DNA of 64,000 nucleotides from Candidatus Latescibacterota bacterium (lineage in GTDB: Bacteria > Latescibacterota > UBA2968 > UBA8231), in contig CBDCXV010000009.1 in the NCBI GenBank assembly GCA_965223905.1, positions 256,001 to 320,000 on the forward strand. The letters run 5' to 3'. Made by a program: the position numbers and the translations under genes. Of this stretch, positions 9,902 to 64,000 are shown piece after piece (the stretch's first letter is position 1; every line of letters begins with the position of its first letter). Under the pieces are notes generated by a model, which made no database searches, was not told where the DNA came from, and saw only the letters and a program-made list of their open reading frames with translations.

Positions 9902-9902
9902 C

Positions 9903-11331: not shown

Positions 11332-11355
11332 GATGCTGTACGGGGCAATTGTGCC

Positions 11356-11440
11356 GCCACGCTGGAGCTCCCGCTGAAAAGACTCACGCCATCAAGCTGG
11401 GCATGATGCAGTAGCTTTCACCGGCTCGATGAGGCTGGCC
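11356..11440 (+). repeat. Degenerate copy of the hsdS 3' end
   Basis: gccatcaagctgggcatgatgcagtagctttcaccggc vs hsdS gccgtcaaacagggcatgatgcagcagcttcttaccggc. Confidence 0.8.
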
Positions 11441-11576
11441 CCACGGATTGCTTGCGCATTCCTCGGAGCCGGGATGAGCGAAGCTCGGGGACGGGATTTC
11501 GTGGAGAACCGGTAGATTTCCTCCTCCCCAGTTCTACCCCTGAACAAACCCACAAATCCCGCAAGAAAGGATCCAA

Positions 11577-15454: not shown

Positions 15455-18064
15455 GTGCCTTCGCGCGCCAGGCGGAAGAAGAAACCGCCCAGGGAGGGGA
15501 TGCAGCCCCGCCCGGATTCAGGGCAGGCGCGGCAGGAGCCGGTACCTGCCGTCCCGACGGAAACCCGGAAGCTCTACGCCGCAGCCGCCGCACTGGGGCT
15601 GCTGGCCCTGCTGCTGTTCGTCCACCAGTACACGACCATGGCGCGGTTCGGGGTCCTCCCGCCGGGCCAGCGGTTCCTGAGCTATTCAGATTTCCTGGTA
15701 ATTGCCTTCGGGAAAATCCAGTTCGGTCCGCTGGACTACCTGCTGCTCGCCGCGATTGCCGGCCTCTTCCTTTCGCTGGTGATCGCCGAATATCGAGGCG
15801 GCCTCCTGAGCGCACTGCTGCGCAGGGTGTTCACCAGCGAAGGCTGGACGATCGGTCTGCTCGCAGCGGGTGGTCTCGTCGCGGTCCGGTTTTACCTCGG
15901 CGTCGGTGACTTCCCGTGGGGGGGAGATCAGCCGCAACACATCTGCTTCGCGCAGATGGCCTCCCGCTCGCTATCCGAGGGTGAGCTGCCGATCTGGACG
16001 AACTACCTCGGCGCGGGCACGCCGCACCTGCAGTTCTACGGCTTCCTGTTCTTCTATTTCGCAGGGCTGATCGACCAGCTCTGGAACGACGTGTTCACGT
16101 CGCTGAAGGTCGCGATGGCGGTTCTGCATGTCGCTTCCGGAGTGGCGATGTACCTGCTGGCCCGCACCCTGACGCGCTCGCGGAGAGCCGGCTTCATCGC
16201 CGCCCTGGCTTACGTGCTGAGCTTCTGGCATACCCAGCAGATCATCATCATGGGCCGCTTTCCCCTGTCCCTTTTCTACGCCCTGCTCCCCCTGCCGTTC
16301 TACTTCTTCGAGCGGCTGTCGAGTCCCCGCCTCGCGGAAAATCGGGTCAGGCTGGCGAGCAGTCTGGCGGGGGGGATCTGCCTCGGCGCCTTGGCCCTGA
16401 CCCACCCGGGCTACGCTTTCTGGGCAACCGTCCTGCTGGGGGTGTACGTGGGATTGCGGCTGATGATCCTGCTGCGCGCGGATCGCAGCCGGACCGACCT
16501 GGTCTGGTGGTCCGCGCTCCTCTTCGCCGGAGGCTTGGTCTTCGGGGCGTACCTGATCCTGCCGATGTCGCTCGAGCGCGACTATACCGGGCTCTACCTC
16601 GGCATGATGGATTTCGCGAAGGTGCCGATCCCGACATGGCAGCACGTGCTGGCCTGGTCCAACTACCGCTTCTGGGTGCTTCCGCCGCCCGACCTCAAAG
16701 TCAACTGGTACGGCGGATATCTCGGACTGTCGCTGGTAATCGTCGTGGCCGGCGGAGTCGCGGCGGCCCTGCGCAGCCGCTCCCGCGAGCTGATCCTCCG
16801 GTCCCTTCCGGCGCTGTGCTGTCTGGGGTTGACGGCCCTCCTCGTCTTCGGGTACCTGTTGCCCCCGCTCCAGGCTCTTCCGGTGGTAAAGATGCTGGCC
16901 GCGGGCCGCTACCTGTTGTTCACCGTCTTCTTTCTGGCCCTTGCCGTCGGCCCGGCGTCGCAGGCGCTGATGATCCTTCTTCGGCGCAGGCGCCGGCGAG
17001 TCCCGGTGCCGACGCTGATACTGCTCGCCATGGCAATCGACCTCGGGCCGGCTACGTTCCAGCAGATGTACAATACACGGGATCCGGCACCCAACATGTT
17101 CCCGCAACTCCGCGCGCAGGCCGACTCCCTGAATGCGCAAGGGAAGCTGCCGAATCACCGGGTCCTCTGGAGCGGCTCCAGCCACAGCAAGTACTGGCTG
17201 AAAGGCAAGCTGTATTTCGAATCGCGGACCTCGAGCCCGGGTTCGTTTCATCCCGGGAGAGCGAGGGCGGTCGTCGACTTCGTGGAACCGATCGACCTCT
17301 ACGTGTCGAAGCTGGTCGAGACGGGGTATTTCGCGATCGACAACAGCGGCAATACCGGCCTGCAGGAGGGGGTACCCGAAACGATTTTCGGCCGCAGCCA
17401 CGGGGAGATCATCCTCGCCGGCCTGAGCATGATGGATGTCAGGTATCTCATTCTGTCAAATCTCGATGAACAGATGAGGATCAGCGACATGAGCGACTTC
17501 GGTACCCATGGCCCAGTGCTCGTATCTCCGAGGGTCGTGCCGTTTCCCGCCGAACAGCTCGACCAACTCATCGCCAGCGGCGAACCATTCGAGACCATGG
17601 ACTCCAAGGGGGTCGACGCCGGTTTCACCCAGATGCTCATCGATTCCTACCACTCCCTTTTTCTGGCTGTTAACACCGGGGTCGATCTGAACAGCCGTGT
17701 GTGCGAGCGGATCTTCGTGCTCGACGCCGAGGGGCAAGAGCTGGGCACGAACCCGTCCCTCGAGGTTCTCGAGCACACGGTGCGCATGCAGCGAGTGGAC
17801 CTGAAGCTGCGGGTCAGCGAGGCCTGCTTCGCGCGCCTGGCGTACTCCTGTTTCCCGCATCTGCGGGTAACCGTCGACGACCGCGAGGTCGTCCCCCTGC
17901 GCACCGCGGGCGGGTTCATGGCGGTGCATTTCGTGGCGGGGGAGCACGAGCTGACCCTGGAGGCGGAGCTGTCGCCGCTGCGGCGGGGCCTGCTCGCCGT
18001 CAACCTGCTCTACCTTGCGGCAACGGCGTACCTGTTCGCAAGCAGCCGTAGAAGGAAGCGATGA
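15455..18064 (+). CDS. GT-C-type membrane glycosyltransferase, paralog 2
   Basis: Same architecture and long near-identical blocks as paralog 1. Confidence 0.7.
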   Translation: MPSRARRKKKPPREGMQPRPDSGQARQEPVPAVPTETRKLYAAAAALGLLALLLFVHQYTTMARFGVLPPGQRFLSYSDFLVIAFGKIQFGPLDYLLLAAIAGLFLSLVIAEYRGGLLSALLRRVFTSEGWTIGLLAAGGLVAVRFYLGVGDFPWGGDQPQHICFAQMASRSLSEGELPIWTNYLGAGTPHLQFYGFLFFYFAGLIDQLWNDVFTSLKVAMAVLHVASGVAMYLLARTLTRSRRAGFIAALAYVLSFWHTQQIIIMGRFPLSLFYALLPLPFYFFERLSSPRLAENRVRLASSLAGGICLGALALTHPGYAFWATVLLGVYVGLRLMILLRADRSRTDLVWWSALLFAGGLVFGAYLILPMSLERDYTGLYLGMMDFAKVPIPTWQHVLAWSNYRFWVLPPPDLKVNWYGGYLGLSLVIVVAGGVAAALRSRSRELILRSLPALCCLGLTALLVFGYLLPPLQALPVVKMLAAGRYLLFTVFFLALAVGPASQALMILLRRRRRRVPVPTLILLAMAIDLGPATFQQMYNTRDPAPNMFPQLRAQADSLNAQGKLPNHRVLWSGSSHSKYWLKGKLYFESRTSSPGSFHPGRARAVVDFVEPIDLYVSKLVETGYFAIDNSGNTGLQEGVPETIFGRSHGEIILAGLSMMDVRYLILSNLDEQMRISDMSDFGTHGPVLVSPRVVPFPAEQLDQLIASGEPFETMDSKGVDAGFTQMLIDSYHSLFLAVNTGVDLNSRVCERIFVLDAEGQELGTNPSLEVLEHTVRMQRVDLKLRVSEACFARLAYSCFPHLRVTVDDREVVPLRTAGGFMAVHFVAGEHELTLEAELSPLRRGLLAVNLLYLAATAYLFASSRRRKR

Positions 18065-48141: not shown

Positions 48142-49620
48142 ATGACCGAAGAGCAACTCCATAACCTCCTTGCCCTCGGCGAAGGTTCCACCACCGAGTT
48201 CAAACGCGGACTCCCCTCCAACTTGGGTAGGGAGATCTGCGCTTTCGCCAATGCTTCCGGGGGAGCGATCCTGCTCGGCGTTTCGGATGCGGGGGAGATC
48301 GTCGGTGTAGCCGACCACAACAGTCTGAAGTCGAGGGTGCAGAGCACCGCACGGTCCGCGGACCCGCCGATCTCGGTAGAAGTCGAGAGCTTCGGTGAGG
48401 TTCTGTCCGTGGTCGTGCCGCCGCAGGAACGCAAGCCCTACTCGTTCGGTGGGCGGTTCTTCATACGCGATGGGGCGAACAGTCAGCAGATGTCGAATGC
48501 GGAAGTGGAAAACCTGTTCTACGCGGTCGGGCGTCTTCATTTCGACAAGAAGCCATGCGAGGCTTTCTCCTTGGAAAACGACCTTGATGACCGGACCTGG
48601 GCGCGGTTCAGCGGACGCGCCAAGATCCCGGAGGCGATGGATAGGGTAGTGGCCCTCCGAAACCTCGGCCTGATCGACGCGCAAGACCGCATGACCCACG
48701 CCGGGGCATGGCTTCTGGCACGAGACATTCGGACGTTCACGACCAGTGCCCACGTGTCCTGTGCCCTCTTCATGGGTACCGAGAAGGTCAGGATTCTCGA
48801 CCGGCGGGACTTCCACAGCGACATCCCGGCGATGATTGACGAGGTGGTGGCTTGGATTCTCACCAAAATCAATGTCGAATTCATCATCAGGCATGTGAGG
48901 CGGGAGGAACGGCCGGAATTGCCCGAAGAAGCCCTTCGCGAGGCGGTGGTGAATGCAGTTGCACACCGCGATTACCGCTCGACCGCGAACGTCCAGATTT
49001 ACGTCTTCAAGGACCGGATCGAAATCGTCAGTCCGGGCGGGTTGCCCGAAGGGATGGGGGAAGCGGATCTGGGCACCAAGAGCGTGCCCCGCAATCCGCT
49101 GCTGTTCGGCATGTTGTACCGAATGGACGTGGTGGAGCAGATCGGTTCCGGCATTCGGCGCATTCGGGAGCTGTGTCGAGAGCACGGGGTGGCGGAGCCG
49201 GTGATCGAGGTGTCCGAGCACTGGGTTACCACTACTTTCAAGCGGCCACCGGCAGAAGTCGGGACCATGTCGGGAACAACTGGGGACCAGATCGCCAACT
49301 CCATATCTGACAGTACGTTACACTATCCTGGAACCCCCCCGGGGGATTCGACAGCCCAGGTCGGAACCAAGCAAGCACTAAGTAGGAACCAAGTTGGAAT
49401 TCTCCGTAACTCCTTGAACGAGCAGGCAATTACGGAGTTGATGGTACTGGCGGGAAAAAAAGATCGCACCAAGTTCAGGAACCAAGTGCTCAGGCCCTTG
49501 CTGGAGGAGGGGTTGCTGGAGATGACCGTCCCCGACAAGCCCCGAAGCAGCAAGCAGAAGTACCGGGTGACGGCACGGGGCAGGGACCTGTTGGCGGAGT
49601 TGGACAGAAAGCCGGATTGA
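48142..49620 (+). CDS. Schlafen/AlbA_2 + HATPase_c_4 + wHTH protein
   Basis: GEGSTTEFKR, ICAFANASGG, ALREAVVNAVAHRDY, EQIGSG, PDKPRSSKQKYR. Confidence 0.88.
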   Translation: MTEEQLHNLLALGEGSTTEFKRGLPSNLGREICAFANASGGAILLGVSDAGEIVGVADHNSLKSRVQSTARSADPPISVEVESFGEVLSVVVPPQERKPYSFGGRFFIRDGANSQQMSNAEVENLFYAVGRLHFDKKPCEAFSLENDLDDRTWARFSGRAKIPEAMDRVVALRNLGLIDAQDRMTHAGAWLLARDIRTFTTSAHVSCALFMGTEKVRILDRRDFHSDIPAMIDEVVAWILTKINVEFIIRHVRREERPELPEEALREAVVNAVAHRDYRSTANVQIYVFKDRIEIVSPGGLPEGMGEADLGTKSVPRNPLLFGMLYRMDVVEQIGSGIRRIRELCREHGVAEPVIEVSEHWVTTTFKRPPAEVGTMSGTTGDQIANSISDSTLHYPGTPPGDSTAQVGTKQALSRNQVGILRNSLNEQAITELMVLAGKKDRTKFRNQVLRPLLEEGLLEMTVPDKPRSSKQKYRVTARGRDLLAELDRKPD

Positions 49621-50744: not shown

Positions 50745-52178
50745 ATGAATGAAAGAACCCTCCTCAGCCTGATCACCCTCGGCGAAGGCTTCACAACGGA
50801 GTTCAAGCGCTCTTTCCCCTCCGACCTGGGCACCGAAATCTGCGCCTTCGCGAATTCCACGGGCGGCGTAATTCTGCTCGGCGTGACGAACGAAGGGGAG
50901 ACCGTAGGCATTGGGAACCACAACAAGCTGAAATCGCAGGTCCAGTCTACCGCGCGTTCGGCGGAGCCACCGATTGCGGTCGAAGTGGAATCCGCCGGCG
51001 ACGTGCTCTGCGTGACCGTGCCCGAACAGCACGGAAAGCCCTATTCCTTCGGCGGAAGGTTCTACATCCGCCAAGGCGCCAATTCTCAGCAAATGTCCCG
51101 CGACGAAATCCGGGAGTTCTTCTACAAGGAAGGACTCATTCGCTTCGACGAGACGCCTTGCCAGCGCTTCGATCTCCAGCGCGATCTGACGCCGGAAGCG
51201 TGGTCTCGATTCGCCGGGCGGACTCGCATTCCGGACGACATGGAACCCTTGACGGCGCTGGAAAACCTGCATCTTGTCGTTGATGGAAAGATGACCCACG
51301 CCGGAGCGTGGCTGCTGGCGGACGATATCACCCGGTACAGCTTGCAGGCAGGGGTGACCTGCGCCCTGCTGCGGGGGGTGACCAAGACGCACATTCTCGA
51401 TCTCAAGAACTTCACCGGCGATCTCTACTCGATCTACGAGGATTGTGTGGCCTACGCACAGGCCAAGCTGAACACGGCGCTGATGCCGCACGTTCGCGGC
51501 AGGGATGAGCGTCTGGAGCTGCCCGAGGACGCGATTCGCGAAGCATTGGTGAACGCCATCGCGCACCGGGACTATCGATCTACCGCCAACGTACAGATGT
51601 ACGTGTTCCACGACCGGTTGGAAATCGTGACGCCGGGCGGGTTGCCCGCAGGAATGCGCGAAGAGGATCTGGGCGTCAAGAGCGTGCCGCGGAACCGGTT
51701 GCTGTTCGGGATGTTTCACCGCATGGGGATGGTGGAGCAGATCGGCAGCGGAATCAGGCGCATTCGACAGGAGTGCCGCGACTACGGGGTGGCGGAACCG
51801 GTGATCGAGGTATCCGAGCACTGGGTGACCATGACCTTTCAAAGGCCGTCCGCACAAATCGGTGAGCAAGTCACCGCGCATGTCAGGGCCCAAGTCCATG
51901 CAGGGCCAGAGTCAGGGCCAGAGTCAGGGCCAGAGTCAGGGCCAGAGTCACTGGAACTGCGCGTCCTGGCGCTACTGATCGAAGAACCTCTTTCGAGATC
52001 CGCCATAGCTGATGGTTTGGGACACCAATCCGTGTCGGCCGGCCTCAACAGAGTGATCCGCAACCTGGTGCGTGACAGGCGTATTGCGTACACGGTCCCG
52101 GACAAGCCGGGCAGCAGGCTTCAGAAGTACCGGATTACGCCAGCCGGGAGATCGGCGCTCGAAGAGTCAGCCAAGTGA
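50745..52178 (+). CDS. Schlafen/AlbA_2 + HATPase_c_4 + wHTH protein (paralog of 48142)
   Basis: GEGFTTEFKR, ICAFANSTGG, AIREALVNAIAHRDYRSTANVQ. Confidence 0.88.
   Translation: MNERTLLSLITLGEGFTTEFKRSFPSDLGTEICAFANSTGGVILLGVTNEGETVGIGNHNKLKSQVQSTARSAEPPIAVEVESAGDVLCVTVPEQHGKPYSFGGRFYIRQGANSQQMSRDEIREFFYKEGLIRFDETPCQRFDLQRDLTPEAWSRFAGRTRIPDDMEPLTALENLHLVVDGKMTHAGAWLLADDITRYSLQAGVTCALLRGVTKTHILDLKNFTGDLYSIYEDCVAYAQAKLNTALMPHVRGRDERLELPEDAIREALVNAIAHRDYRSTANVQMYVFHDRLEIVTPGGLPAGMREEDLGVKSVPRNRLLFGMFHRMGMVEQIGSGIRRIRQECRDYGVAEPVIEVSEHWVTMTFQRPSAQIGEQVTAHVRAQVHAGPESGPESGPESGPESLELRVLALLIEEPLSRSAIADGLGHQSVSAGLNRVIRNLVRDRRIAYTVPDKPGSRLQKYRITPAGRSALEESAK
51901..51948 (+). repeat. 12-bp coding tandem repeat x4 (GPES)
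   Basis: cagggccagagt x4. Confidence 0.95.
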
Positions 52179-52200
52179 GCCTCTCCCCCTGACAACACTC

Positions 52201-55200
52201 ATGCCCCAACTCGAACATATCGACGCCATCGAGAAGCGCCTCTGGGAAGCGGCGGACACGCTGCGGGCAAACTCCCCTTACGCCAGCAACGAGTACTTCC
52301 TGCCGGTCATGGGCCTGGTGTTCCTGCGCCACGCCTACAGCCGCTACCTGGCGGTCAAGGACAAAGTCGAAGCCAGCCTGCCGACCCGGGGCGGCAGGAA
52401 ACGGGCGCCGACCAGGGATGACTATTCCCGCCAGAGCGCCATCTTCCTGCGGCCCGAGGCCCAATTCGACAACCTGGTTGGCCTGCCGGACGGCGAGGAC
52501 CGCGCCAAGGCCGTCATCGCGGCGATGGACTCCATCGAGGAGGATTACCACAGCCTGCGCGGCGCCCTTCCCAAGGCCGAGTACCAGGAGCTTGACAACG
52601 ACGTTCTCGGCCAGCTCCTGCGCACGCTCAACCCCGACGAGCTGAAGCAGGTTTCGGGCGACGTCTTCGGACGCATCTACGAGTATTTCCTGACCAAGTT
52701 TGCGGATTTGAAAGCCCACGACGACGGTGAGTTCTTCACCCCCGTGTCGCTGGTCTCGCTGATCGCCCATGTGCTCGACCCCGACCGCGGCACCGTGCTC
52801 GACCCGGCCTGCGGTTCCGGCGGCATGTTCGTCCAAAGCGCCCGCACCGTGGAGGAGCACGGCAGCAGCCCTGCCGAGCGGCTTACCTTCCGCGGACTGG
52901 AAAAGAACGCCACCACCATCCGCATCGCCCGAATGAACCTCGCCGTCCACGGCCTCGAGGGGGACATCCGGCAGGCGATCACCTACTACGAGGATCCGCA
53001 TCAAATGGTGGGAAAGGCCGACTACGTGATGGCCAATCCCCCCTTCAACGTCGACGAGATCGACGCCGACAAGGTCGAGACCGACCCGCGCCTGCCGTTC
53101 GGCCTGCCCGGAGTCAACAAGAAGGAGAAGGTCTCCAACGGGAACTACGTCTGGATCAGCTACTTCTACAGCTACCTGAACGAGAAGGGGCGGGGCGGCT
53201 TCGTCATGTCGTCGCAGGCCTCCAGCGCCGGCGGCGGCGAGGCGCAGGTGCGGCGGAAGCTGATCGAGTCCGGCGACGTCGACGTGATGATCGCGGTGCG
53301 CTCCAACTTCTTCTACACCCGCACCGTGCCCTGCGAGCTGTGGTTCCTCAATCGCGACAAGCCCGGGGAGCTCCGCGACAAGGTGCTGATGATCGACGCC
53401 CGCAATGTCTATCGGAAGGTCACCCGCAAGATCTACGACTTCACCCCCGAGCAGGAGCAGAACCTGCTGGCCATCGTCTGGCTCTACCGGGGCGAAACGG
53501 CGCGCTATCTCGACCTTGTCTCCCAGTACCTGTGGGACGTTGCCGAGAATGGAAGGGCCTGTTACGAAGGAGTGAGCGTAAACGGCAGGACCTGCCGGCC
53601 CCTGCCGGAGTTCATGGAAGCCGTCGCCGCGCTTCGGAAGGAGCTGACCCCGTTCCTGAAGACCCGGCCGAGGATCGGCCCGCACGCCGAAATCTTCGCC
53701 GAGCTGGCGCAGGAGCAGAAGCAGTTCGGAGGCATCCTCAGGAGGTTCCAGGCTCGGGCCGCCAAGGCGGAGGAACAGTGGGAGCGGACTCCCGGCAGCA
53801 GGGCCGGATTGAACAAGCTGGTAGAGCGGTTCGCACCCCTGGCTGAGAGCAGCCACGACCTTGCCGGGCAGGCCGACCAGCTCTACAAGATTGCCGCGCG
53901 TCTGATCGAGACCTGCGAGCAGGGGGAGGACGCGAAGGCGAGCGACGCCTGGAACGGCCGCGGCATTACCCGGGCCCGCAAGGCCGTCGACGATGCCCTC
54001 CGGCAGGCCATCGAGCAGCTCGAACAGGTGCGCTACTTGCACCGGCAGGCGCGCTGGCTCACGGAGCGTTTCCCCGAGGGCGAGTTGCGCGACGTGGAAG
54101 GGCTGGTCAAGCTGGTGGACCGTGCCGAGATCGAGGCCAACGACTGGAGTCTGACTCCGGGCCGCTACGTCGGGGTCGCTCCAGAGGAGGAGGACGAGGA
54201 TTTTGATTTCAAGGAGGCTTTGCGGGAGGGTGTCTTAGCTGATTGTTACGGTTTCGGTGGTTGTTTTTAGGTTTTCTCGGTACTGCTGAAAGACCCGGTC
54301 AAGCGTTCCATTGTACAAGGCGCAGCGCAGGGCCAGAATGGCGTTGCTGTTTTCCTTATACCACCAAGCGCCCGACCGTTTCAGACGAACGTGGCCGATG
54401 AAGCGATGCGCCGATTCGATCGCCCCCGACCCGATCGGGTATCCGCCCTTGCGATGGCTGCCGAAATCGACCTGGTGCAGTCGCTTTTGCAGGTAGGTCA
54501 AGGCCGTGCCGATGGCCTCTCCGGCCTCTTCCGAGAGCGGCTGCATGCGCTGCAGACCCCAGACCACGCCGCTGCCCTCGCCGCAGAACAGGCGCGCCAG
54601 GGTCGCTTCCAGCCAATGGGCAGCACGCGCCGCATCGGCGCCGTATTGGGCCTCGGCCACCGCGTGCAGGTAGCTGCTGCAATGGTAGTAGTCGAGGATC
54701 TGACGGGCGCTCGGGAACAGCTCTTCCACCCACTTCCAGATCCACGGAGCGCCATCTCCGATGGCACACAAGCGCACCTGATCCTCCGGGATCAGCCCCG
54801 CCTCCTTGACCTGGCGCAAGGCCGCGCCGAAGGCCTGTTCGTTGCCCATCTGGTGCCAGGAGATCAGCTGCTCGATGCGCTCATCGTCTATCAGGTAGAA
54901 GCGAAAGCCCTTGGCTTCGTGGTATTCCCCCTGCCAACGCCTTCGCCGAGCCCGGCTCTTCTTGCGTCCGGGACGGGTGCCTTTGGCGGTCTGGGGACGA
55001 CTGGGCACGTCGGCCGCGTCGATGGCCAACACCACGATCGGCCGCCACTTGCGACCGGCGGCGGCTTGCGCAATGCGATCCTGGATATCGGCCGCGTCCG
55101 GACACACCTGCAGCACGTCCAACGACCCGGTCTGTTGCAGCACCTCGTGAATCACACAATCGCTCATCGACGCGTCGGTGAGCTCGTCCAACAGTTCGGC

Positions 55201-55898
55201 GGCGCGCCGGTGGGGCATCTCCAGCCCCAGCTTGACCCCGGCCTGCTGCACGTCCCACTGCTTGCGCTGCGCCGACAGGCCCAGGGCCTCGTCCAGCGGA
55301 TAGAACCCGTGGTGACAGCCAACGCAGTAGAAATAGGGACGCTCCAAGGTCACCGGCCCGAGCAGCGTCTCCACCGTGCGCGAGCGAGACGGGCGCGCTC
55401 GCAGCAGGCCTTTGCACTTGGGGCAGGCCGCCTCTTCCTGGGCCAGGAAATGGCCGTGGCGGCGTTCGACGAAGGCTTCCACCAAGGCCGCGGTGAGCCC
55501 GGAGCGCTCTTGAGACATCGCCGCGGTGATCTCCAGCAACGTCGGCGCACAAGATCCGCGCGCGCTCATTTGCGTCTCCACCCGATCCAGCCATTGGTCC
55601 AAGGCTTCATGCGCCCGGCTTCGAAAGCGGTCCTGACTCTGCCGCTCCTGAAAAACTTCCAGAGAGAGAATCGCACTCATCGCTCCCCTTCTTTCTGAAA
55701 TCAGGGGAGCGCGCCGCAGGGGATGCGGAAAAAGAAAGCAACTTACTGTAAAATATACACATACGCACCTGAATTGCGCTATAACAATTACTTAAGACGC
55801 CCTTGCGGGAGATCCACCTTGAGCTGGAAGACCTCAATGCCGAGGCAGTGGTGCTGGCGGAGAAGATCAGGAAGAACTTCGAGGAGCTGGGGGTATGA
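52201..55898 (+). CDS. hsdM: Type I R-M methyltransferase subunit, interrupted near its 3' end by an IS
   Basis: GEFFTP, LDPACGSGGM, ANPPFN; removing the IS and one TSD restores ...KEALREIHLELEDLN...NFEELGV*. Confidence 0.93.
54228..55802 (-). mobile_element. IS copy 1 (ISKra4/ISLre2-like, Mutator superfamily), 1575 bp
   Basis: Ends GGGTGTCTTAGCTGATTGTTA / TAACAATTACTTAAGACGCCC; 8-bp TSD TTGCGGGA. Confidence 0.95.
54235..55680 (-). CDS. tnp: DDE transposase (UPF0236/ISKra4-like)
   Basis: CPKC zinc knuckle, AIDAA, GDGAPWIW, ILDYYH, GYPIGSGAIESAHR. Confidence 0.93.
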   Translation of the reverse strand: MSAILSLEVFQERQSQDRFRSRAHEALDQWLDRVETQMSARGSCAPTLLEITAAMSQERSGLTAALVEAFVERRHGHFLAQEEAACPKCKGLLRARPSRSRTVETLLGPVTLERPYFYCVGCHHGFYPLDEALGLSAQRKQWDVQQAGVKLGLEMPHRRAAELLDELTDASMSDCVIHEVLQQTGSLDVLQVCPDAADIQDRIAQAAAGRKWRPIVVLAIDAADVPSRPQTAKGTRPGRKKSRARRRRWQGEYHEAKGFRFYLIDDERIEQLISWHQMGNEQAFGAALRQVKEAGLIPEDQVRLCAIGDGAPWIWKWVEELFPSARQILDYYHCSSYLHAVAEAQYGADAARAAHWLEATLARLFCGEGSGVVWGLQRMQPLSEEAGEAIGTALTYLQKRLHQVDFGSHRKGGYPIGSGAIESAHRFIGHVRLKRSGAWWYKENSNAILALRCALYNGTLDRVFQQYRENLKTTTETVTIS

Positions 55899-56052
55899 AG
55901 AAGCGAACCAACCTGTGGTCAGGCGGTTCTGGGGAGATCTTCCCGGCAATGCCCACAATAATGACCAAGCCGTCATTTAAGGTTGCTTGCACAAATCCTT
56001 TGATTGTTTGATGATGGGCAATACCAGGTAGCCTTTGGGGAGTCGAGGAGGA

Positions 56053-57270
56053 ATGAGTTGGCACGAAATCAGGCTTGGTGATGCAATCAAGGTGAAGCAC
56101 GGTTTTGCATTCAAGAGTCAGTATTTCTCTGATACCGGGGAATTCGTTGTCCTAACTCCCGGCAACTTCAACGAAGCGGGTGGATTCCGTGTGCGAGCTG
56201 GTAAGGATCGATTCTATGTGGGGGATATTCCGGAGGGGTATGTGTTGAAGGAAGGAGACCTCATCGTCGCAATGACGGAACAGGGCCCTGGTCTTCTTGG
56301 AAGTTCTGCCTTGGTTCCGGAAAGTGGGAAATACCTCCACAACCAACGTCTGGGCTTAATCCAGAATACAAAAAGCAGGATCCTGGACAAAAACTTTCTC
56401 TACTACCTCTTCAACACCAGAGAAGTTCGTGGGCAAATCAGCGCTAGCGCAAGCGGTACGAAAGTTAGACATACGGCTCCGGAACGAATTTACCGGGTCA
56501 AGATTATTGTTCCAGGTATCAAGAAGCAGCGGCGAATCGTTTCTATCCTTTCCTCCTACGACGATTTGATCGAAATCAATCGGCGCCGGATTCAGCTGTT
56601 GAAGAAGGCGGCGCGGTTGCTCTACAAGGAGTGGTTTATCCACCTTCGCTTCCCCGGACATGAGTATGTCCAGGTCAAGGACGGGGTGCATAAGGGCTGG
56701 GAGAGGAAGAGTGCCCTTGATGTGATGGATGTCATGAGTGGGGGAACCCCTAAGGTGGGTGTGCCGGATTATTGGGGTGGTGAGATTCCCTTCTTTACGT
56801 CAAAGGATACCACAGATTACCCATACGTTTTCGGAACAGAAAGAACGATTACGGAAGAGGGGTTACGTAATTGTAACAGTAGGCTTTATCCAAAGGACAC
56901 CATTTTTATTACCGCACGAGGAACAGTTGGAAAAATTAACCTCGCCCAGACAAATATGGCAATGAATCAATCATGCTATGCTCTGGTGGCCAAGCCACCG
57001 CTGGATCAGGAATTCCTGTACTTCGCACTAGAGGAAAACATCGACCAATTTCGTAGCCGTGCAGTAGGCGCGATTTTCGATGCGATCATACGAGACACTT
57101 TTAAGCTGATTCCATTTTTAGTTCCTGATAGTAGATCAATAAAAAGATTCGGAGGCGTCATATCGCCGACTTTAAAGCAAATCGACATCCTTTCTACTCA
57201 ATTAAGGAAGCTAGTCAAAGCTCGATCTATCATCTTGCCACGGCTAATTTGTGGAAAGATGGAGACATGA
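56053..57270 (+). CDS. hsdS: Type I R-M specificity subunit
   Basis: KHGFAFKS, QRRIVSILSSYDDLIEINRRRI, LYKEWFIHLRFPG, SGGTP, ILPRLICG; RBS GGAGG. Confidence 0.93.
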   Translation: MSWHEIRLGDAIKVKHGFAFKSQYFSDTGEFVVLTPGNFNEAGGFRVRAGKDRFYVGDIPEGYVLKEGDLIVAMTEQGPGLLGSSALVPESGKYLHNQRLGLIQNTKSRILDKNFLYYLFNTREVRGQISASASGTKVRHTAPERIYRVKIIVPGIKKQRRIVSILSSYDDLIEINRRRIQLLKKAARLLYKEWFIHLRFPGHEYVQVKDGVHKGWERKSALDVMDVMSGGTPKVGVPDYWGGEIPFFTSKDTTDYPYVFGTERTITEEGLRNCNSRLYPKDTIFITARGTVGKINLAQTNMAMNQSCYALVAKPPLDQEFLYFALEENIDQFRSRAVGAIFDAIIRDTFKLIPFLVPDSRSIKRFGGVISPTLKQIDILSTQLRKLVKARSIILPRLICGKMET

Positions 57271-57383: not shown

Positions 57384-60300
57384 ATGAGTATCAAACACAT
57401 TTTCATTTCACATGCTGCGGAGGATGGGGAAATTGCTACTGAGTTAGAAGAACATCTGCGTAATGCCGGCCATGAGACCAAGATCGACACCCAGGTACTT
57501 AGTCTTGGAGACAATGCCATTTCCTTTATGAATGATGGAATCGCGGATGCGGCTGCAGTCATTATTCTCTTCTCAGAGCATACCCCTAATGCGAAGTGGC
57601 AGAACCTCGAAATCGATGCCGCAGTTTGGAACCAAGTCGCTCAGTCTGGGGGGAGATGTATTGTCGTCCGCCTGGACGATACCCCGATACCACCTTTGCT
57701 TGGTCCAAAGGTGTATGGAATGCTAGAGAAAGGAGATCAAGAATCTCTAAGAAGGTTAGTGGAAGACATTTGCGGCGAACTATTTAGCGAACAGACAACC
57801 TCGTCGTTGGTTGCCGAGGCTTTCACACCCAACTCACAAAATCCCTTTCGACACCTTAGAGCCGAATTTTTCGAGAACCAGCCAGAGCTTCACGCAAAGA
57901 CATTCGCGCTACCAGAGGCCATAAAAGTGGGAGCGCTCGAGGATATGAAACCGTGCATTCTAGAAGGATCGAGAGGAACGGGTAAATCGATGCTATTGCT
58001 GTCGTTAAGGGCGCGCAATTTTTTACAACGGAGTCCCAGTGAAAGAAGTGCCCCCCAACGCTTCGGTTTTTACTTGAAACTTACCCGCGGGGCGATCTGT
58101 AATGCAGGGGTCCGTTTCGAGGATGATCACCTAAATTCAACAATTAACACCGACGTTCTCGTAGACGTGGGTGCCCAAGAATTGTATCTACAGATAATGG
58201 AGAGTTTGTTATCCGAACTGGTATATTGCGTCGAACACAATTTGGTCAATCGCGACGGACTTGTTGAACGGAATTTCTGCGAAGCAGCCGACGAACTGCT
58301 GTTCGAATCTAAGGGAGAAAAGCCTATTTCCTTCGTCGAATTGCAAGTCAAACTCTCCGATATGCACAAACGGCTGGCTAATTTTATCCGCCGTAAGTTC
58401 ATTTATGAGGAATCCGTCTCGGTACCGATAGCTACTCTGGACTTGGAACAACTGAAACGTATCATAGCTTTATTACGACACCACACCCCATCCCTTGAAG
58501 AGTCGATTTTTGTTGTATTGCTTGATGAGTATGAGAACCTTTTCCCATATCAGAGACGGATAGTAAATAGCCTGGTCAAACTAGGTCCTCCACATATTTC
58601 AATCAAAATTGCAAAGAAGCTTGCAAGCGGAGATATCCCAGGAACCACGACTGGGCAAGAATTACAAGAGATACACGACTATACGAGAGTACCATTGGTG
58701 TACAACCTTGAAGACACAGCGGAAAGAAAGGCCTACCATGAACTACTGCGCCACATCGTAACAAACATGGCTATGCTTGAAAGTTCCCTCTCCGTTGATG
58801 TGGATAAACTTCTCCCTCACTTTTGCGATTCCGAAGTCGATGAGTCCTTATGGATAGAAGAACTGGTTAGACTCCAAAAGATCAGCCTCGATGAATTTGA
58901 GAATTTGCCAACTAAGGAGCAGCGGGAAAAGAGAACCTACTATGGTGAAGCAGCGACGTATCGGGTCCTTCTTGGAAGGCGTGGCCGGCATGCTGAGAAG
59001 CGGTTTGCCGGGTTCAAAGAGCTCGCGCTTTTAGGATCTGGAGTTATCCGCTATTTTCAAGAATTTCTGAGTGTTGGCTACCATCTTACCTTCGGGGGCA
59101 ATTCACCGCCCAAGGGAATTCTAACAATTCCACCAGACCAACAATCCAGGGCTGTCCATATCGTCTCTCAGCATAACCTTACGACGCTCAGCAAAAATGT
59201 AGAGCGTCACGGTGAGGAGCTGCGGTATTTCCTCCTGGACCTCGGTGATTGTTTAAGGCACAAATTGCTCAAGCACACAAGCGAACCGGAGGCTGCTCGA
59301 CTGACGATAGAGGATCCTGAGATGTTGGAAAAAACCACCATGGAAACGTTGAAACATATCCTTGCGGTTGGGGAAGGAGAGGGGGTGTTTCAAACCAAGG
59401 AGGGGCTTCCTGCATTCAAGCCTAAGCACGGGTCCGATCCTCAACCCACAGAATTCAATATTTGTCGAGTTTATGCCCCTGTCCTCCAAATCAGCCCACG
59501 ACTTCGCTGGAGAACGAACGTGAAGTGCAGGCACTTACAGCGTTTCCTTGAACCTGGAAAGGGGTGTCTTAGCTGATTGTTACGGTTTCGGTGGTTGTTT
59601 TTAGGTTTTCTCGGTACTGCTGAAAGACCCGGTCAAGCGTTCCATTGTACAAGGCGCAGCGCAGGGCCAGAATGGCGTTGCTGTTTTCCTTATACCACCA
59701 AGCGCCCGACCGTTTCAGACGAACGTGGCCGATGAAGCGATGCGCCGATTCGATCGCCCCCGACCCGATCGGGTATCCGCCCTTGCGATGGCTGCCGAAA
59801 TCGACCTGGTGCAGTCGCTTTTGCAGGTAGGTCAAGGCCGTGCCGATGGCCTCTCCGGCCTCTTCCGAGAGCGGCTGCATGCGCTGCAGACCCCAGACCA
59901 CGCCGCTGCCCTCGCCGCAGAACAGGCGCGCCAGGGTCGCTTCCAGCCAATGGGCAGCACGCGCCGCATCGGCGCCGTATTGGGCCTCGGCCACCGCGTG
60001 CAGGTAGCTGCTGCAATGGTAGTAGTCGAGGATCTGACGGGCGCTCGGGAACAGCTCTTCCACCCACTTCCAGATCCACGGAGCGCCATCTCCGATGGCA
60101 CACAAGCGCACCTGATCCTCCGGGATCAGCCCCGCCTCCTTGACCTGGCGCAAGGCCGCGCCGAAGGCCTGTTCGTTGCCCATCTGGTGCCAGGAGATCA
60201 GCTGCTCGATGCGCTCATCGTCTATCAGGTAGAAGCGAAAGCCCTTGGCTTCGTGGTATTCCCCCTGCCAACGCCTTCGCCGAGCCCGGCTCTTCTTGCG

Positions 60301-61246
60301 TCCGGGACGGGTGCCTTTGGCGGTCTGGGGACGACTGGGCACGTCGGCCGCGTCGATGGCCAACACCACGATCGGCCGCCACTTGCGACCGGCGGCGGCT
60401 TGCGCAATGCGATCCTGGATATCGGCCGCGTCCGGACACACCTGCAGCACGTCCAACGACCCGGTCTGTTGCAGCACCTCGTGAATCACACAATCGCTCA
60501 TCGACGCGTCGGTGAGCTCGTCCAACAGTTCGGCGGCGCGCCGGTGGGGCATCTCCAGCCCCAGCTTGACCCCGGCCTGCTGCACGTCCCACTGCTTGCG
60601 CTGCGCCGACAGGCCCAGGGCCTCGTCCAGCGGATAGAACCCGTGGTGACAGCCAACGCAGTAGAAATAGGGACGCTCCAAGGTCACCGGCCCGAGCAGC
60701 GTCTCCACCGTGCGCGAGCAAGACGGGCGCGCTCGCAGCAGGCCTTTGCACTTGGGGCAGGCCGCCTCTTCCTGGGCCAGGAAATGGCCGTGGCGGCGTT
60801 CGACGAAGGCTTCCACCAAGGCCGCGGTGAGCCCGGAGCGCTCTTGAGACATCGCCGCGGTGATCTCCAGCAACGTCGGCGCACAAGATCCGCGCGCGCT
60901 CATTTGCGTCTCCACCCGATCCAGCCATTGGTCCAAGGCTTCATGCGCCCGGCTTCGAAAGCGGTCCTGACTCTGCCGCTCCTGAAAAACTTCCAGAGAG
61001 AGAATCGCACTCATCGCTCCCCTTCTTTCTGAAATCAGGGGAGCGCGCCGCAGGGGATGCGGAAAAAGAAAGCAACTTACTGTAAAATATACACATACGC
61101 ACCTGAATTGCGCTATAACAATTACTTAAGACGCCCCTGGAAAGAGGGCTCAAGCGATTCGAGAATTAAAGAACACTGTAGCGAAGCCCGCAAAAGACCC
61201 AGCCACACAAGAGAGTTTGGTCCTTCAACCGGGAAGACAAAAGTGA
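57384..61246 (+). CDS. TIR domain + STAND/ORC-CDC6-like P-loop NTPase, interrupted near its 3' end by an IS
   Basis: TIR motifs IFISHAAED and KWQNLE; Walker A GSRGTGKS; Walker B VVLLDEYEN; restored end ...EPGKRAQAIRELK...GRQK*. Confidence 0.85.
59562..61136 (-). mobile_element. IS copy 2, 1575 bp
   Basis: Same terminal inverted repeats; 8-bp TSD CTGGAAAG. Confidence 0.95.
59569..61014 (-). CDS. tnp: DDE transposase (copy 2)
   Basis: Matches copy 1 except RPSR to RPSC. Confidence 0.93.
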   Translation of the reverse strand: MSAILSLEVFQERQSQDRFRSRAHEALDQWLDRVETQMSARGSCAPTLLEITAAMSQERSGLTAALVEAFVERRHGHFLAQEEAACPKCKGLLRARPSCSRTVETLLGPVTLERPYFYCVGCHHGFYPLDEALGLSAQRKQWDVQQAGVKLGLEMPHRRAAELLDELTDASMSDCVIHEVLQQTGSLDVLQVCPDAADIQDRIAQAAAGRKWRPIVVLAIDAADVPSRPQTAKGTRPGRKKSRARRRRWQGEYHEAKGFRFYLIDDERIEQLISWHQMGNEQAFGAALRQVKEAGLIPEDQVRLCAIGDGAPWIWKWVEELFPSARQILDYYHCSSYLHAVAEAQYGADAARAAHWLEATLARLFCGEGSGVVWGLQRMQPLSEEAGEAIGTALTYLQKRLHQVDFGSHRKGGYPIGSGAIESAHRFIGHVRLKRSGAWWYKENSNAILALRCALYNGTLDRVFQQYRENLKTTTETVTIS

Positions 61247-63776
61247 AACGGCTGCTAACCCAAGGAATTTTGCCTGATGGGGCAGTCCTAATTACATGTT
61301 CAAGCCACGAGGCCAGATGCAAAGGCCTACTTATTTCTACCCAGGGTTGGTTGCCGAGTGAAGTGAATCTCTTTCACTACGATGACGATAATCCCATCCG
61401 TGAAAAGAACCATAGCCATATGGAATCAGAGTTTCGGAAAATCGCTTCCCGGGTGACGACCCTTCAATTTACCGAAGCCGACGCAGTCAGTAGTTTGCGC
61501 GACAATATGGAAAATCTTCAGCACTCTATATACCGCTCCGACACCAAGGCTATCGTAATAGATATATCCGTTTTCACAAAAAGGCATTTGCTCATGATGT
61601 TGAGATGGCTTGATGACTATGATCTCTGGAATCCACTATATGTCGTGTATAGTGAACCAAGTGAATATTTGATTTCTGAGCACATTCCCCTCTCATTTGG
61701 ACTCGCTTCCCTTCAACAAACTCCCGGTTTTTCCGCCTGTCCAGATCTCAGTAGACCCGTGCACCTAATAATGTTTTTGGGGTATGAAGGCGATAGGGCC
61801 ATGGCGGTCTATGAACATATCCAACCAATGAAAACCACCTTGGCCGTTCCCCACCCCCCATATCGATCAGAATGGGCGGGAAGGACAGAGCAATTTAATA
61901 GAGATCTTCTGTCTTTGGTTGGAGAACAAGCCGTGCTCAAAATCGATGCACTCGATCCAGACGCCACAGACGAGACTCTCACAAATGTCCTGGGAAGTTC
62001 TGCAAGAGGCGATTTTGCGCGCATTGTCTCCCCCCTTGGAACCAAACCACAGACCCTCGGTGTCTATAACTACGTTAGGAAGGCAGAGGATCCACCAGCA
62101 ATTGTTTATGCCAGTCCGCAGCGACACAATCACGCCTTTTATTCTAGAGGATTCGGTAAGACGGGTGTCTTAGCTGATTGTTACGGTTTCGGTGGTTGTT
62201 TTCAGGTTTTCTCGGTACTGCTGAAAGACCCGGTCAAGCGTTCCATTGTACAAGGCGCAGCGCAGGGCCAGAATGGCGTTGCTGTTTTCCTTATACCACC
62301 AAGCGCCCGACCGTTTCAGACGAACGTGGCCGATGAAGCGATGCGCCGATTCGATCGCCCCCGACCCGATCGGGTATCCGCCCTTGCGATGGCTGCCGAA
62401 ATCGACCTGGTGCAGTCGCTTTTGCAGGTAGGTCAAGGCCGTGCCGATGGCCTCTCCGGCCTCTTCCGAGAGCGGCTGCATGCGCTGCAGACCCCAGACC
62501 ACGCCGCTGCCCTCGCCGCAGAACAGGCGCGCCAGGGTCGCTTCCAGCCAATGGGCAGCACGCGCCGCATCGGCGCCGTATTGGGCCTCGGCCACCGCGT
62601 GCAGGTAGCTGCTGCAATGGTAGTAGTCGAGGATCTGACGGGCGCTCGGGAACAGCTCTTCCACCCACTTCCAGATCCACGGAGCGCCATCTCCGATGGC
62701 ACACAAGCGCACCTGATCCTCCGGGATCAGCCCCGCCTCCTTGACCTGGCGCAAGGCCGCGCCGAAGGCCTGTTCGTTGCCCATCTGGTGCCAGGAGATC
62801 AGCTGCTCGATGCGCTCATCGTCTATCAGGTAGAAGCGAAAGCCCTTGGCTTCGTGGTATTCCCCCTGCCAACGCCTTCGCCGAGCCCGGCTCTTCTTGC
62901 GTCCGGGACGGGTGCCTTTGGCGGTCTGGGGACGACTGGGCACGTCGGCCGCGTCGATGGCCAACACCACGATCGGCCGCCACTTGCGACCGGCGGCGGC
63001 TTGCGCAATGCGATCCTGGATATCGGCCGCGTCCGGACACACCTGCAGCACGTCCAACGACCCGGTCTGTTGCAGCACCTCGTGAATCACACAATCGCTC
63101 ATCGACGCGTCGGTGAGCTCGTCCAACAGTTCGGCGGCGCGCCGGTGGGGCATCTCCAGCCCCAGCTTGACCCCGGCCTGCTGCACGTCCCACTGCTTGC
63201 GCTGCGCCGACAGGCCCAGGGCCTCGTCCAGCGGATAGAACCCGTGGTGACAGCCAACGCAGTAGAAATAGGGACGCTCCAAGGTCACCGGCCCGAGCAG
63301 CGTCTCCACCGTGCGCGAGCGAGACGGGCGCGCTCGCAGCAGGCCTTTGCACTTGGGGCAGGCCGCCTCTTCCTGGGCCAGGAAATGGCCGTGGCGGCGT
63401 TCGACGAAGGCTTCCACCAAGGCCGCGGTGAGCCCGGAGCGCTCTTGAGACATCGCCGCGGTGATCTCCAGCAACGTCGGCGCACAAGATCCGCGCGCGC
63501 TCATTTGCGTCTCCACCCGATCCAGCCATTGGTCCAAGGCTTCATGCGCCCGGCTTCGAAAGCGGTCCTGACTCTGCCGCTCCTGAAAAACTTCCAGAGA
63601 GAGAATCGCACTCATCGCTCCCCTTCTTTCTGAAATCAGGGGAGCGCGCCGCAGGGGATGCGGAAAAAGAAAGCAACTTACTGTAAAATATACACATACG
63701 CACCTGAATTGCGCTATAACAATTACTTAAGACGCCCGGTAAGACCTGGGTGCTAAAGAAGGCCGAAGAAAAATGA
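61243..63776 (+). CDS. Uncharacterised protein (possibly tandem CARF-like Rossmann fold), interrupted near its 3' end by an IS
   Basis: GTG start overlaps the TIR-NTPase stop; motifs VIDISVFTK, FLGYEGDR, SPLGTKPQTLG; restored end RGFGKTWVLKKAEEK*. Confidence 0.75.
62163..63737 (-). mobile_element. IS copy 3, 1575 bp
   Basis: Same terminal inverted repeats; 8-bp TSD GGTAAGAC. Confidence 0.95.
62170..63615 (-). CDS. tnp: DDE transposase (copy 3)
   Basis: Protein matches copy 1. Confidence 0.93.
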   Translation of the reverse strand: MSAILSLEVFQERQSQDRFRSRAHEALDQWLDRVETQMSARGSCAPTLLEITAAMSQERSGLTAALVEAFVERRHGHFLAQEEAACPKCKGLLRARPSRSRTVETLLGPVTLERPYFYCVGCHHGFYPLDEALGLSAQRKQWDVQQAGVKLGLEMPHRRAAELLDELTDASMSDCVIHEVLQQTGSLDVLQVCPDAADIQDRIAQAAAGRKWRPIVVLAIDAADVPSRPQTAKGTRPGRKKSRARRRRWQGEYHEAKGFRFYLIDDERIEQLISWHQMGNEQAFGAALRQVKEAGLIPEDQVRLCAIGDGAPWIWKWVEELFPSARQILDYYHCSSYLHAVAEAQYGADAARAAHWLEATLARLFCGEGSGVVWGLQRMQPLSEEAGEAIGTALTYLQKRLHQVDFGSHRKGGYPIGSGAIESAHRFIGHVRLKRSGAWWYKENSNAILALRCALYNGTLDRVFQQYRENLKTTTETVTIS

Positions 63777-64000
63777 AGTTGGCAACGAGACTAGATCGCT
63801 ACCCGGGAAAAATGGTATCCAAACTGGCCCATCGCCTAGTTCATCTTTATGCCTCTGAAGCTGACTCCGTTATTGATCCCTTTTGCGGATCCGGCGCGAT
63901 CCTCGTTGCGGCTAAGCAAGCTGGAATCTCCGTTTCCGGGATTGATCTTAATCCCATCTCAGAATTGTTCTGTCGCGTGAAGATCCAACGATTTGATCCT
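63773..64000 (+). CDS. DNA amino-methyltransferase, N-terminal part (runs off window end)
   Basis: MKLATRLDRYPGKM...VIDPFCGSGAILVAA...GIDLNP; ATGA overlap with the preceding stop. Confidence 0.85.
   Translation, partial: MKLATRLDRYPGKMVSKLAHRLVHLYASEADSVIDPFCGSGAILVAAKQAGISVSGIDLNPISELFCRVKIQRFDP

Follow-up and report, generated by a model that had tools for sequence, protein, structure and literature searches.

The 64,000-nucleotide stretch of DNA analysed here (the window), from a Candidatus Latescibacterota bacterium (assembly GCA_965223905.1, contig CBDCXV010000009.1, positions 256,001 to 320,000), ends in a cassette of three plus-strand genes, denoted G1, G2 and G3, that encode, respectively, a TIR domain fused to an ORC-CDC6-like ATPase, a predicted tandem-CARF protein and an amino-methyltransferase. 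The first two are each split by an insertion sequence (IS). G1 occupies 57384..59561 (N-terminal 726 codons, the IS having inserted after codon 726) and 61145..61246 (final 33 codons and TGA), its frame being continuous once the IS is removed. G2, with a GTG start, occupies 61243..62162 (first 306 codons) and 63746..63776 (final 9 codons and the TGA stop), and G3 starts at 63773, has its first 76 codons in the window and extends to the window equivalent of position 64951 (7952 in locus L002) as an intact gene for 392 residues. G1 and G2 overlap by GTGA (61243-61246), G2 and G3 by ATGA (63773-63776), and the G+C content of the cassette is 43-50%, compared to 63.8% for the genome.

The interrupting element is 1575 bp long, and the final 10 kb of the window hold three copies of it, in a single orientation and with pairwise differences of 1-2 bases. 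Copy A (54228-55802) interrupts hsdM of a type I restriction-modification (R-M) operon, with the 8-bp direct target duplication TTGCGGGA; copy B (59562..61136, minus strand) lies in G1, with the duplication CTGGAAAG at 59554-59561 and 61137-61144; and copy C (62163..63737, minus strand) lies in G2, with the duplication GGTAAGAC at 62155-62162 and 63738-63745. The ends carry imperfect terminal inverted repeats, and the 481-residue transposase, encoded on the minus strand in copy B, belongs to the ISKra4 family (NCBIfam NF033572, 248.8 bits versus an equivalog cut-off of 205). Deleting each IS with one copy of its duplication, in a script, gave three frames with zero internal stops: 759 residues for G1, 316 for G2 and 747 for hsdM. 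IS-free G1 (57384..61246) aligns at 88% identity and with no gaps to its intact homologue P0001, and IS-free G2 (GTG at 61243, to 63776) at about 84-85%, again with no gaps, to P0121, so the IS insertions are the sole lesions and are recent. Judged from its sequence, the copy of the cassette in this genome is dead, with G1 and G2 split and the methylase gene alone intact. Since G1, G2 and hsdM are broken and only G3, hsdS and hsdR are intact, the cassette and the type I enzyme are both nonfunctional, and the locus is best annotated as a dead copy whose sole part still able to act is the methylase.

In G1, residues 6-126 match TIR_2 (Pfam E 4.3e-19) and residues 153-708 match the ORC-CDC6-like family PF24389 almost over its full length (E 3.9e-50; 171.6 bits, cut-off 27; profile positions 1-566 of 571). 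The motifs FISH (position 7), WQNLE (72), Walker A GSRGTGKS (195) and Walker B VVLLDE (377) are all present, and in an alignment of 14 G1 homologues the TIR Glu76 and both Walker motifs are invariant. No TPR, WD40 or other sensor-repeat family matches G1 in Pfam or PADLOC, nor do Avs or NLR models, and the ATPase part has no counterpart among the NCBIfam models. Among the homologues listed, more than 120 have 750-771 residues and are 55-90% identical to G1. In a profile search of PDB sequences, the TIR domain found AbTIR, PdTIR, BtpA/TcpB and Cat1 as its solved relatives.

G2 matches nine PADLOC CARF6 models nearly end to end (best PDLC01917, E 7.1e-27) and has no match in Pfam or NCBIfam. It has 397 homologues, of which those listed are mostly of ~316 residues and named at most 'hypothetical protein'. 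The AF2 (AlphaFold2) model of one of them, P0121, is confident, with a predicted local distance difference test score (pLDDT) of 85.4 and a predicted template modelling score of 0.88, and was compared by VIA-align with 48,161 PDB representatives. The best match was Can1 (6sce_A; Z 13.9, root-mean-square deviation 3.9 Å over 232 residues, model residues 13-296), followed by single CARF domains of Can2, Card1, Csm6 and Csa3 (Z 10-12 over ~120-130 residues) and then by the SAVED proteins Cap5 and CalpL (Z 8-9 over 185-200 residues). Given the CARF6 profile matches and the fold matches to Can1, CARF and SAVED, G2 is, according to this model, a tandem-CARF, SAVED-like sensor without an effector domain. 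A Foldseek search of the G2 model against the PDB had returned only matches with TMq ≤0.28 (C-terminal domains of cation-chloride cotransporters, FabG4) and was replaced by the VIA-align scan. The same genome encodes a second CARF6 paralogue (G000:C9:630802-631698; L049 8776-9786, minus strand) with 25% identity to G2 and a PADLOC E of 7.7e-25. It lies directly upstream of another hsdS, is preceded by a gene for 176 residues without a match, and has another IS further on. No ORC-like ATPase lies beside it, and CARF6 adjoining type I R-M genes may be a separate theme.

G3 matches Pfam N6_N4_Mtase and PADLOC MTase_II (E 4.4e-20), and nothing in NCBIfam beyond generic methyltransferase models. 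Its motif I, DPFCGSGA (35-42), precedes motif IV, TSPPY (225-229), and the ~185 residues between them, which presumably include the target-recognition region, are strongly conserved among 11 orthologues. The preliminary description of this DNA had proposed three AT-richer genes for a TIR-NTPase of ~760 residues with no obvious sensor repeats, a CARF-like protein of ~315 residues and an amino-methyltransferase, and the IS-free genes bear this out. It had also placed the three in one overlapping series right after hsdS; the overlaps within the cassette are there, but G1 itself is uncoupled from hsdS, whose stop (57270) lies 113 bp before the G1 start. The operon was further expected to continue beyond the window, which is so for G3 itself, but it ends with G3 at 64951 and has no further members.

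The ATPase and CARF6 modules also occur fused in nature, as in the 747-residue protein P0241, which joins PF24389 to a full CARF6 part. G1 (residues 140-759) and G2 were modelled as a complex with an ipSAE of 0.78 (0.77, 0.80 and 0.78 in separate runs), compared to 0.00 for the best of three controls; the pLDDT of the partner was at least 83 and the runs agreed in at least 84% of contacts. Among solved complexes, 58 of 80 come up to the score mark used, as do 2 of 110 mismatched pairs, a calibration that is rough only, since own alignments were used here. On the G1 side, the modelled interface comprises the post-TIR segment 141-165 and the helical parts 229-244, 270-278, 318-342 and 601-611 of the ATPase; on the G2 side, it comprises a conserved loop at 152-173 and neighbouring helices. 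We know of no solved ORC-CARF complex that the model could have remembered. The two proteins therefore probably bind each other, a statement about model confidence and not a measurement.

A scan of one genome per species yielded 20 related loci with close relatives of G1, of which 17 keep the three genes in collinear order. Both G2 and G3 are full length in 16 of these 17, and the 4-bp start/stop overlaps recur wherever coordinates of open reading frames (ORFs) were compared. In the three others, G1 was found alone and IS-cut (L014), the match is limited to the first 288 residues of G1, close to the end of the locus (L020), or an internal deletion fuses G1 to G3 (L021). The collinearity, overlaps and fusions rule out chance adjacency, and the gene set is a genuine conserved unit, and probably a defensive one; that the three genes form a unit, as first proposed, is thus upheld. 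Hosts belong to Nitrospirota (Nitrospirales), Acidobacteriota (Vicinamibacterales, Bryobacterales, Holophagales, Angelobacter), Latescibacterota, Verrucomicrobiota (Verrucomicrobiae/Prosthecobacter), Planctomycetota (Planctomicrobium) and Hydrogenedentota. The distribution of the cassette is patchy and island-like, and its G+C content is below that of its flanks in all 11 intact loci. No close relative of G1 was found in 72,556 plasmid records or among viral contigs, the latter yielding four distant matches only. Counting the window with the 20 related loci, G1 is damaged in seven: besides the window, it is interrupted by an ISL3 element at different codons in L012 (11315-12946) and L019 (11551-13164) and by an IS5 element in L014 (10340-11290), is split by an insertion without a family match in L016, and has a frameshift in L013 and the deletion in L021. 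Damage to G3 alone was seen only in L004. This repeated splitting of G1 is suggestive of a cost to carrying it, a trend that is not statistically firm. In L016, the whole cassette is wedged between the genes for the N- and C-terminal subunits of fumarate hydratase (9079-9954 and 16893-17465), in what appears from the sequence to be a clean case of mobility as a unit.

Beyond its close relatives, the cassette resembles loci with other effectors. In Terrimonas (L023), PRTase-CE is followed by the ORC-CDC6-like ATPase and CARF6 and then, after two more genes, by an unrelated N6 methylase of the gamma class. PF24389 was present in 16 of 401 Bacteroidota genomes sampled and in 20 of 168 genomes of the phylum to which the window belongs, in the latter patchily (10 of 49 genera). 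We assembled a census of 35 loci (15 from the Bacteroidota survey, L023 and 19 from the host phylum, with the present genome G000, a contig-end fragment in G422 and a weak match in G569 set aside), using ORFs from a simple ORF caller and not an annotation pipeline, and calling CARF6 partners with a hidden Markov model built from the G2-family alignment or, for L023, with PADLOC. In 28 loci, CARF6 is the gene immediately downstream of the ATPase, and in three (L090, L141, L142) it is fused to the latter, so that 31 of the 35 share this arrangement; it was not found beside the ATPase in L089, L091, L092 and L144. The effector slot holds PRTase-CE in nine loci, HD-CE in nine, an N-terminal protein kinase fused to the ATPase in seven (kinase-ORC(-CARF6) proteins in L089, L090, L137-L140 and L143), a calcineurin-like phosphoesterase with a wHTH-Calcineurin_assc domain in one and, in addition to the window, TIR in two (L134 and L135, identical with L006 and L009); it was left unassigned in L083, L088, L141 and L142. 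An operon methylase is present in 27 of the 35; it comes from one of three unrelated families, N6_N4 in 13, C5 in 11 and gamma N6 in two, and is a weak MTS-type match in one. Such non-homologous exchange of both effector and methylase, with the ATPase-CARF6 pair left unchanged, is a hallmark of conflict systems, and the co-occurrence with swapped effectors that the preliminary description had called for was thus found. The window itself has the PF24389 ATPase, a CARF6 gene downstream, an operon methylase and an N-terminal effector, TIR, and we judge it reasonably probable that the cassette represents the TIR form of a modular, four-function class defined by a methylase, a swappable effector, an ORC-CDC6-like ATPase and CARF6, with three genes here since TIR and ATPase are fused. 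A CARF6 tree whose tips carry the effector and methylase types, built to see whether CARF6 follows the methylase, has long branches and clades that follow whole operons.

In three kinase-ORC loci with CARF6, a homologue of the Druantia protein DruA (E down to 4.5e-118) occupies the position of the methylase (L088 7148-8266; L139 10695-11870; L140 6542-7720), and in L139 a GmrSD gene adjoins it. L023 was one of 26 distant pattern matches (L023-L048), and neighbourhoods were viewed in 10 loci. Most of L024-L048 belong to a separate family of ORC-like proteins of ~525-548 residues and were not counted as members. These proteins (e.g. L024 9283-11602) share the motifs RAEFFE and EGSRGTGKS, are preceded in the 10 loci inspected by a gene for 232-248 residues without a Pfam or PADLOC match, and are widespread in Proteobacteria, Bacteroidota and Cyanobacteria, and also occur in the viral contigs L093-L096. 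From its sequences, this group looks like a distinct two-gene family.

We found no named or tested system matching the gene set in the literature searched, whose coverage left out the likeliest papers (Nicastro et al. 2023, Makarova et al. 2020). No PADLOC system model fits the cassette beyond single domains. PF24389, PF24390 (PRTase-CE) and PF24391 (HD-CE) have consecutive accessions and probably go back to the work of Nicastro, Burroughs, Iyer and Aravind (NAR 2023), and the CARF6 models of PADLOC-DB presumably to the CARF census of Makarova et al. 2020. The domains of the class are already catalogued in Pfam and PADLOC, and a computational description probably exists; as far as we have seen, the class itself is unnamed. 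Relative to the PF24389-centred systems with PRTase-CE, HD-CE or calcineurin-like effectors, the cassette has the same ATPase family, CARF6 directly downstream, an operon methylase and a comparable order, but its TIR is fused to the ATPase N-terminus, where those systems have a separate PRTase-CE or HD-CE gene, and its methylase lies downstream rather than upstream of CARF6. A family of fusions of a kinase, an AAA+ ATPase with Arg in the P-loop, CARF and wHTH was noted by Makarova et al. 2014 (PMC4012209), and it matches the kinase variants found here. The distinctive AAA+/CARF pairing is common to both, and G1, with GSRGTGKS, also has Arg in its P-loop. In the 2014 family, everything is in a single polypeptide with a kinase and the passage on it mentions no methylase, whereas here there is a TIR domain, and ATPase and CARF are on separate proteins. 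The designation 'undescribed' given initially must consequently be narrowed: no matching named or tested system was found, while PF24389, the CARF6 models and the 2014 kinase-AAA+-CARF fusion all exist.

Like Can1 (6sce) and SAVED sensors, G2 has two CARF-like domains per chain in the model and an asymmetric ligand site; unlike them, it lacks a nuclease or other effector domain and a cyclase partner. The Pgl kinase protein PglW carries an ORC/STAND-like domain, according to a preprint (bioRxiv 10.1101/2025.10.09.681413). Unlike BREX/Pgl, the cassette has no PglZ, BrxA, BrxB or BrxL and has a TIR effector and a CARF partner; moreover, the BREX proteins PglZ, BrxC and PglX gave no PADLOC matches for G1 or G2, and none among the best 25 of 32 matches for G3. 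A TIR domain with a conserved catalytic Glu is common to Thoeris, TIR-SAVED/CBASS, Cat1 (CARF-TIR) and the Avs/NLR-like TIR proteins, but here there is no ThsA, CD-NTase, Cas10 or C-terminal repeat sensor, and, unlike in Cat1, CARF would be a separate protein bound to the ATPase, as modelled, and not fused to TIR. The mad1-mad8 set of MADS is not present, with marginal matches only for mad8 on G1 (its top non-TIR PADLOC match, E 1.1e-3), mad2 on the methylases and mad5 on hsdS. The original statement that the layout is not that of Thoeris, CBASS, Pycsar, Avs or short pAgo systems agrees with the PADLOC results and with the absence of Cas10 and SMODS matches in this genome described below.

The reading we favour, and consider fairly likely as a whole, is that of a methylation-aware, ATPase- and CARF-gated TIR NADase, predicted to act against mobile elements. 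G3, with its SPPY motif, would methylate an exocyclic amino group of host DNA, and its preferred role would be that of a self-mark keeping the ATPase off host DNA. The G1-G2 complex would serve as sensor and switch, in which the ORC-like module of G1 would read the state of DNA and the double-CARF G2 a nucleotide-type ligand. The ORC/Cdc6-like clade reads DNA in replication, transposition and BREX, according to two sources (PMC10853773; bioRxiv 10.1101/2025.10.09.681413). Upon infection, ATP-dependent assembly would juxtapose the TIR domains of G1, and the assembled Glu76 site would hydrolyse NAD+, leading to growth arrest or abortive infection. Bacterial and plant TIR domains need self-association for NADase activity.

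Several points weigh against this reading. That the cassette defends, that its TIR domain is an NADase, that G3 methylates DNA and what sets the system off are each inferred, and literature searches found no experiment on any member of the class. No solved structure was matched by the sequence of the ATPase part of G1 in the profile search of PDB sequences, and the full-length AF2 model of G1, made with 14 close homologues, is poor (pLDDT 47), so that its AAA+ and winged-helix anatomy is taken from the Pfam profile alone. The kinase in the effector slot of seven members is at odds with a pure 'nucleotide-depleting effector' picture, and the model gives CARF6 no role more specific than that of a putative ligand sensor. 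The unusual conservation of the presumed target-recognition region of G3 is atypical for a self-marking R-M methylase and leaves room for another substrate. Finally, a defence-island context is not universal, 6 of 17 sets of flanks (L004, L007, L015, L016, L018, L022) containing only housekeeping or signalling genes.

An alternative that we regard as unlikely is that the signal derives from the methylome: phage-shredded, G3-marked DNA would yield methylated mono- or oligonucleotides that bind the asymmetric pocket of G2 and trigger the ATPase-TIR protein, the ORC-like part being an assembly switch instead of a DNA reader, and the methylase a writer of signal precursor instead of a means of self-protection. 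G2 is a ligand-binding fold without an effector domain in an operon without a cyclase, and neither Cas10 (TIGR02577, TIGR02578) nor the SMODS cyclase (PF18144) was found in this genome, which is 93.6% complete, nor SMODS in the operon. The methylase and CARF6 always occur together whatever the effector, and the presumed target-recognition region of G3, on the one hand, and G2, on the other, are both strongly conserved in the TIR-type orthologues, as expected of a fixed mark-reader pair. There is a precedent in PUA-Cal-HAD, for which a preprint gives m6-dAMP, set free when Dam-methylated DNA is degraded, as the trigger (bioRxiv 10.64898/2026.01.15.699771). Against it, three chemically different marks are predicted across the class (m6A or m4C, and m5C), to each of which CARF6 would need to adapt anew, the known ligands of CARF domains are (cyclic) oligoadenylates and not methylated deoxynucleotides, and DruA replaces the methylase in three kinase variants (L088, L139, L140); the CARF6 tree, with its long branches and operon-tracking clades, is unable to bear on the question. 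Were it true, there would be a class of CARF ligands outside the cyclic oligoadenylates, and the PRTase-CE, HD-CE and kinase versions would follow the same logic. The attribution of cyclic oligoadenylate sensing in trans, with G2 an accessory reading the products of a type III CRISPR system or CBASS elsewhere in the cell, is highly improbable by comparison, even though the closest folds to G2 are all cyclic oligoadenylate sensors (Can1, Can2, Card1, Csm6, Csa3) and the cassette in L019 adjoins Cmr5 and RAMP genes. Besides the missing Cas10 and SMODS matches in this genome, Cas10 exceeded the cut-off in just one of five other hosts searched (G550, ~0.5 Mb from the cassette; it was not found in G003, G004, G005 or G549), and the methylase would be left without a role.

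The TIR domain could, as bacterial TIR domains do in Thoeris, make a signal of the cyclic ADP-ribose isomer type, with G2 as its receptor. The TIR of G1 does have weak ThsB-type matches (PF08937, E 2e-4; PADLOC ThsB, E 2.6e-4) and CARF, like SLOG, is a Rossmann-like nucleotide sensor, but G2 has no effector domain to activate, no ThsA-type effector was matched by PADLOC among the cassette and flanking proteins scanned, and the same slot in sister systems holds degradative effectors (PRTase-CE, HD-CE, calcineurin-like) and not signal synthases. As G2 is modelled docked on the ATPase, a diffusible signal from the same complex would also seem superfluous, and we deem this arrangement improbable. 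Quite improbable, too, is a selfish addiction module, a post-segregational killer of the R-M type, in which the methylase is the antidote and the ATPase-TIR protein a toxin released on unmethylated self DNA, the cassette being kept by addiction and horizontal spread and not by defence. Its lower G+C content in 11 of 11 loci, the insertion between the two fumarase subunit genes in L016 and the damage to G1 in seven loci, with G3 alone damaged only in L004, would all suit such a module. The asymmetry in damage is not significant given the lengths of the genes (binomial estimate ~0.18), however, frameshifts in metagenome-assembled genomes may be assembly errors, and no close relative of G1 was found in plasmid records or viral contigs; in addition, a module may serve addiction and defence alike.

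Should an intact copy protect against phage, the methylation-aware, CARF-gated TIR NADase that we favour would represent a widespread system, its ATPase family being present in 12% of the genomes sampled from the host phylum and in 4% of those from Bacteroidota, and would combine a switch built on an ORC/Cdc6-type ATPase with epigenetic marking and with a cyclase-free CARF sensor, three themes that are usually separate. It would also make testable what ligand CARF binds where the cell has no cyclic-oligoadenylate synthase. The swappable slot offers a test bed in which one sensor core drives different killing chemistries, and mutagenesis has direct handles in the natural fusions and in the interface modelled between ATPase and CARF. 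The interest of the class, which lies in a CARF protein that has no cyclase, a sensor linked to a methylase and the ATPase-CARF interface, is tempered by the dead state of this copy and by the probable earlier computational description.

In the window, the cassette follows hsdM (52072..55898, plus strand; PADLOC MTase_I, E 1.3e-241; cut by IS copy A, 747 residues when IS-free) and hsdS (56035..57270, plus strand; Pfam Methylase_S, E 9.8e-33; PADLOC Specificity_I, E 1.4e-69), and G3 is followed, in order, by a remnant of a Schlafen gene, an IS66 transposase gene, a DUF6932 gene with its partner encoding 298 residues, and hsdR. The cassette is thus enclosed by hsdS and hsdR in a type I R-M operon, as it is in L006, and in L009 it has hsdS before it and an intact Schlafen/AlbA_2 gene after it. 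Elsewhere it often lies in defence islands, and is flanked by a BsuBI/PstI-type R-M system (L003), AbiEi and a phage portal gene (L008), DUF1156/DUF499 and an nSTAND gene (L010), BrxL, an AbiEii-like ATPase and a serine recombinase (L011), a large methylase and a helicase-nuclease (L017), or Cmr5/RAMP and an IS3 integrase (L019). The suggestion that it backs up the type I enzyme accordingly fits its embedding here and in L006 and L009, but not the other hosts, where the cassette stands by itself or in islands of another kind. The two related type I R-M operons have, between hsdM and hsdS, a small gene for a Zeta-toxin/AAA_33-like kinase (L006 7901-8491; L009 8020-8556), which the operon of the window lacks.

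Upstream of hsdM in the window are two tandem genes of the Schlafen/AlbA_2 + HATPase_c_4 + Fic-like_C type (48142-49620 and 50745-52178), 53% identical to each other, and the remnant directly after G3 corresponds to 48 residues of a third (G000:C9:320997-321140); this genome has well over a dozen paralogous Schlafen matches. The DUF6932 gene (L002 10679-11236; PADLOC candidate PDC-M63A, E 5e-14) overlaps the gene for 298 residues (11233-12129), which has no family match, and the pair forms a second embedded cassette in the interval from the IS66 element to hsdR (window equivalent 67678-69128).

The genome (7.92 Mb) contains 14 full copies of the ISKra4-family element, of which the three at this locus lie within 9.5 kb, a clustering with a simulated probability of 0.0014 under uniform insertion. 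Since the flanks of all 14 insertion sites have a G+C content (0.47-0.62) below that of the genome, a preference of the IS for low-G+C, acquired DNA explains at least part of this clustering. Four of the 14 copies, on contig C10 of the genome (G000:C10 at 1366138, 1429739, 1480367 and 1599671), lack matching 8-bp duplications, and three of these share the half-sites AGTCAATC, CCTTCGAA and TTCTCCTG and their reverse complements; such swapped half-sites point, as far as the sequence can tell, to IS-mediated inversions or rearrangements on this contig. Thymidylate synthase genes adjoin the class in a few cases: a ThyX-type gene lies right after CARF6 in two PRTase-CE variants (L127 6052-7029; L128 11255-12199), and in L010 the TIR-type cassette borders on a ThyA gene (14478-15269), an adjacency that may be due to chance or may reflect a tie to nucleotide modification.

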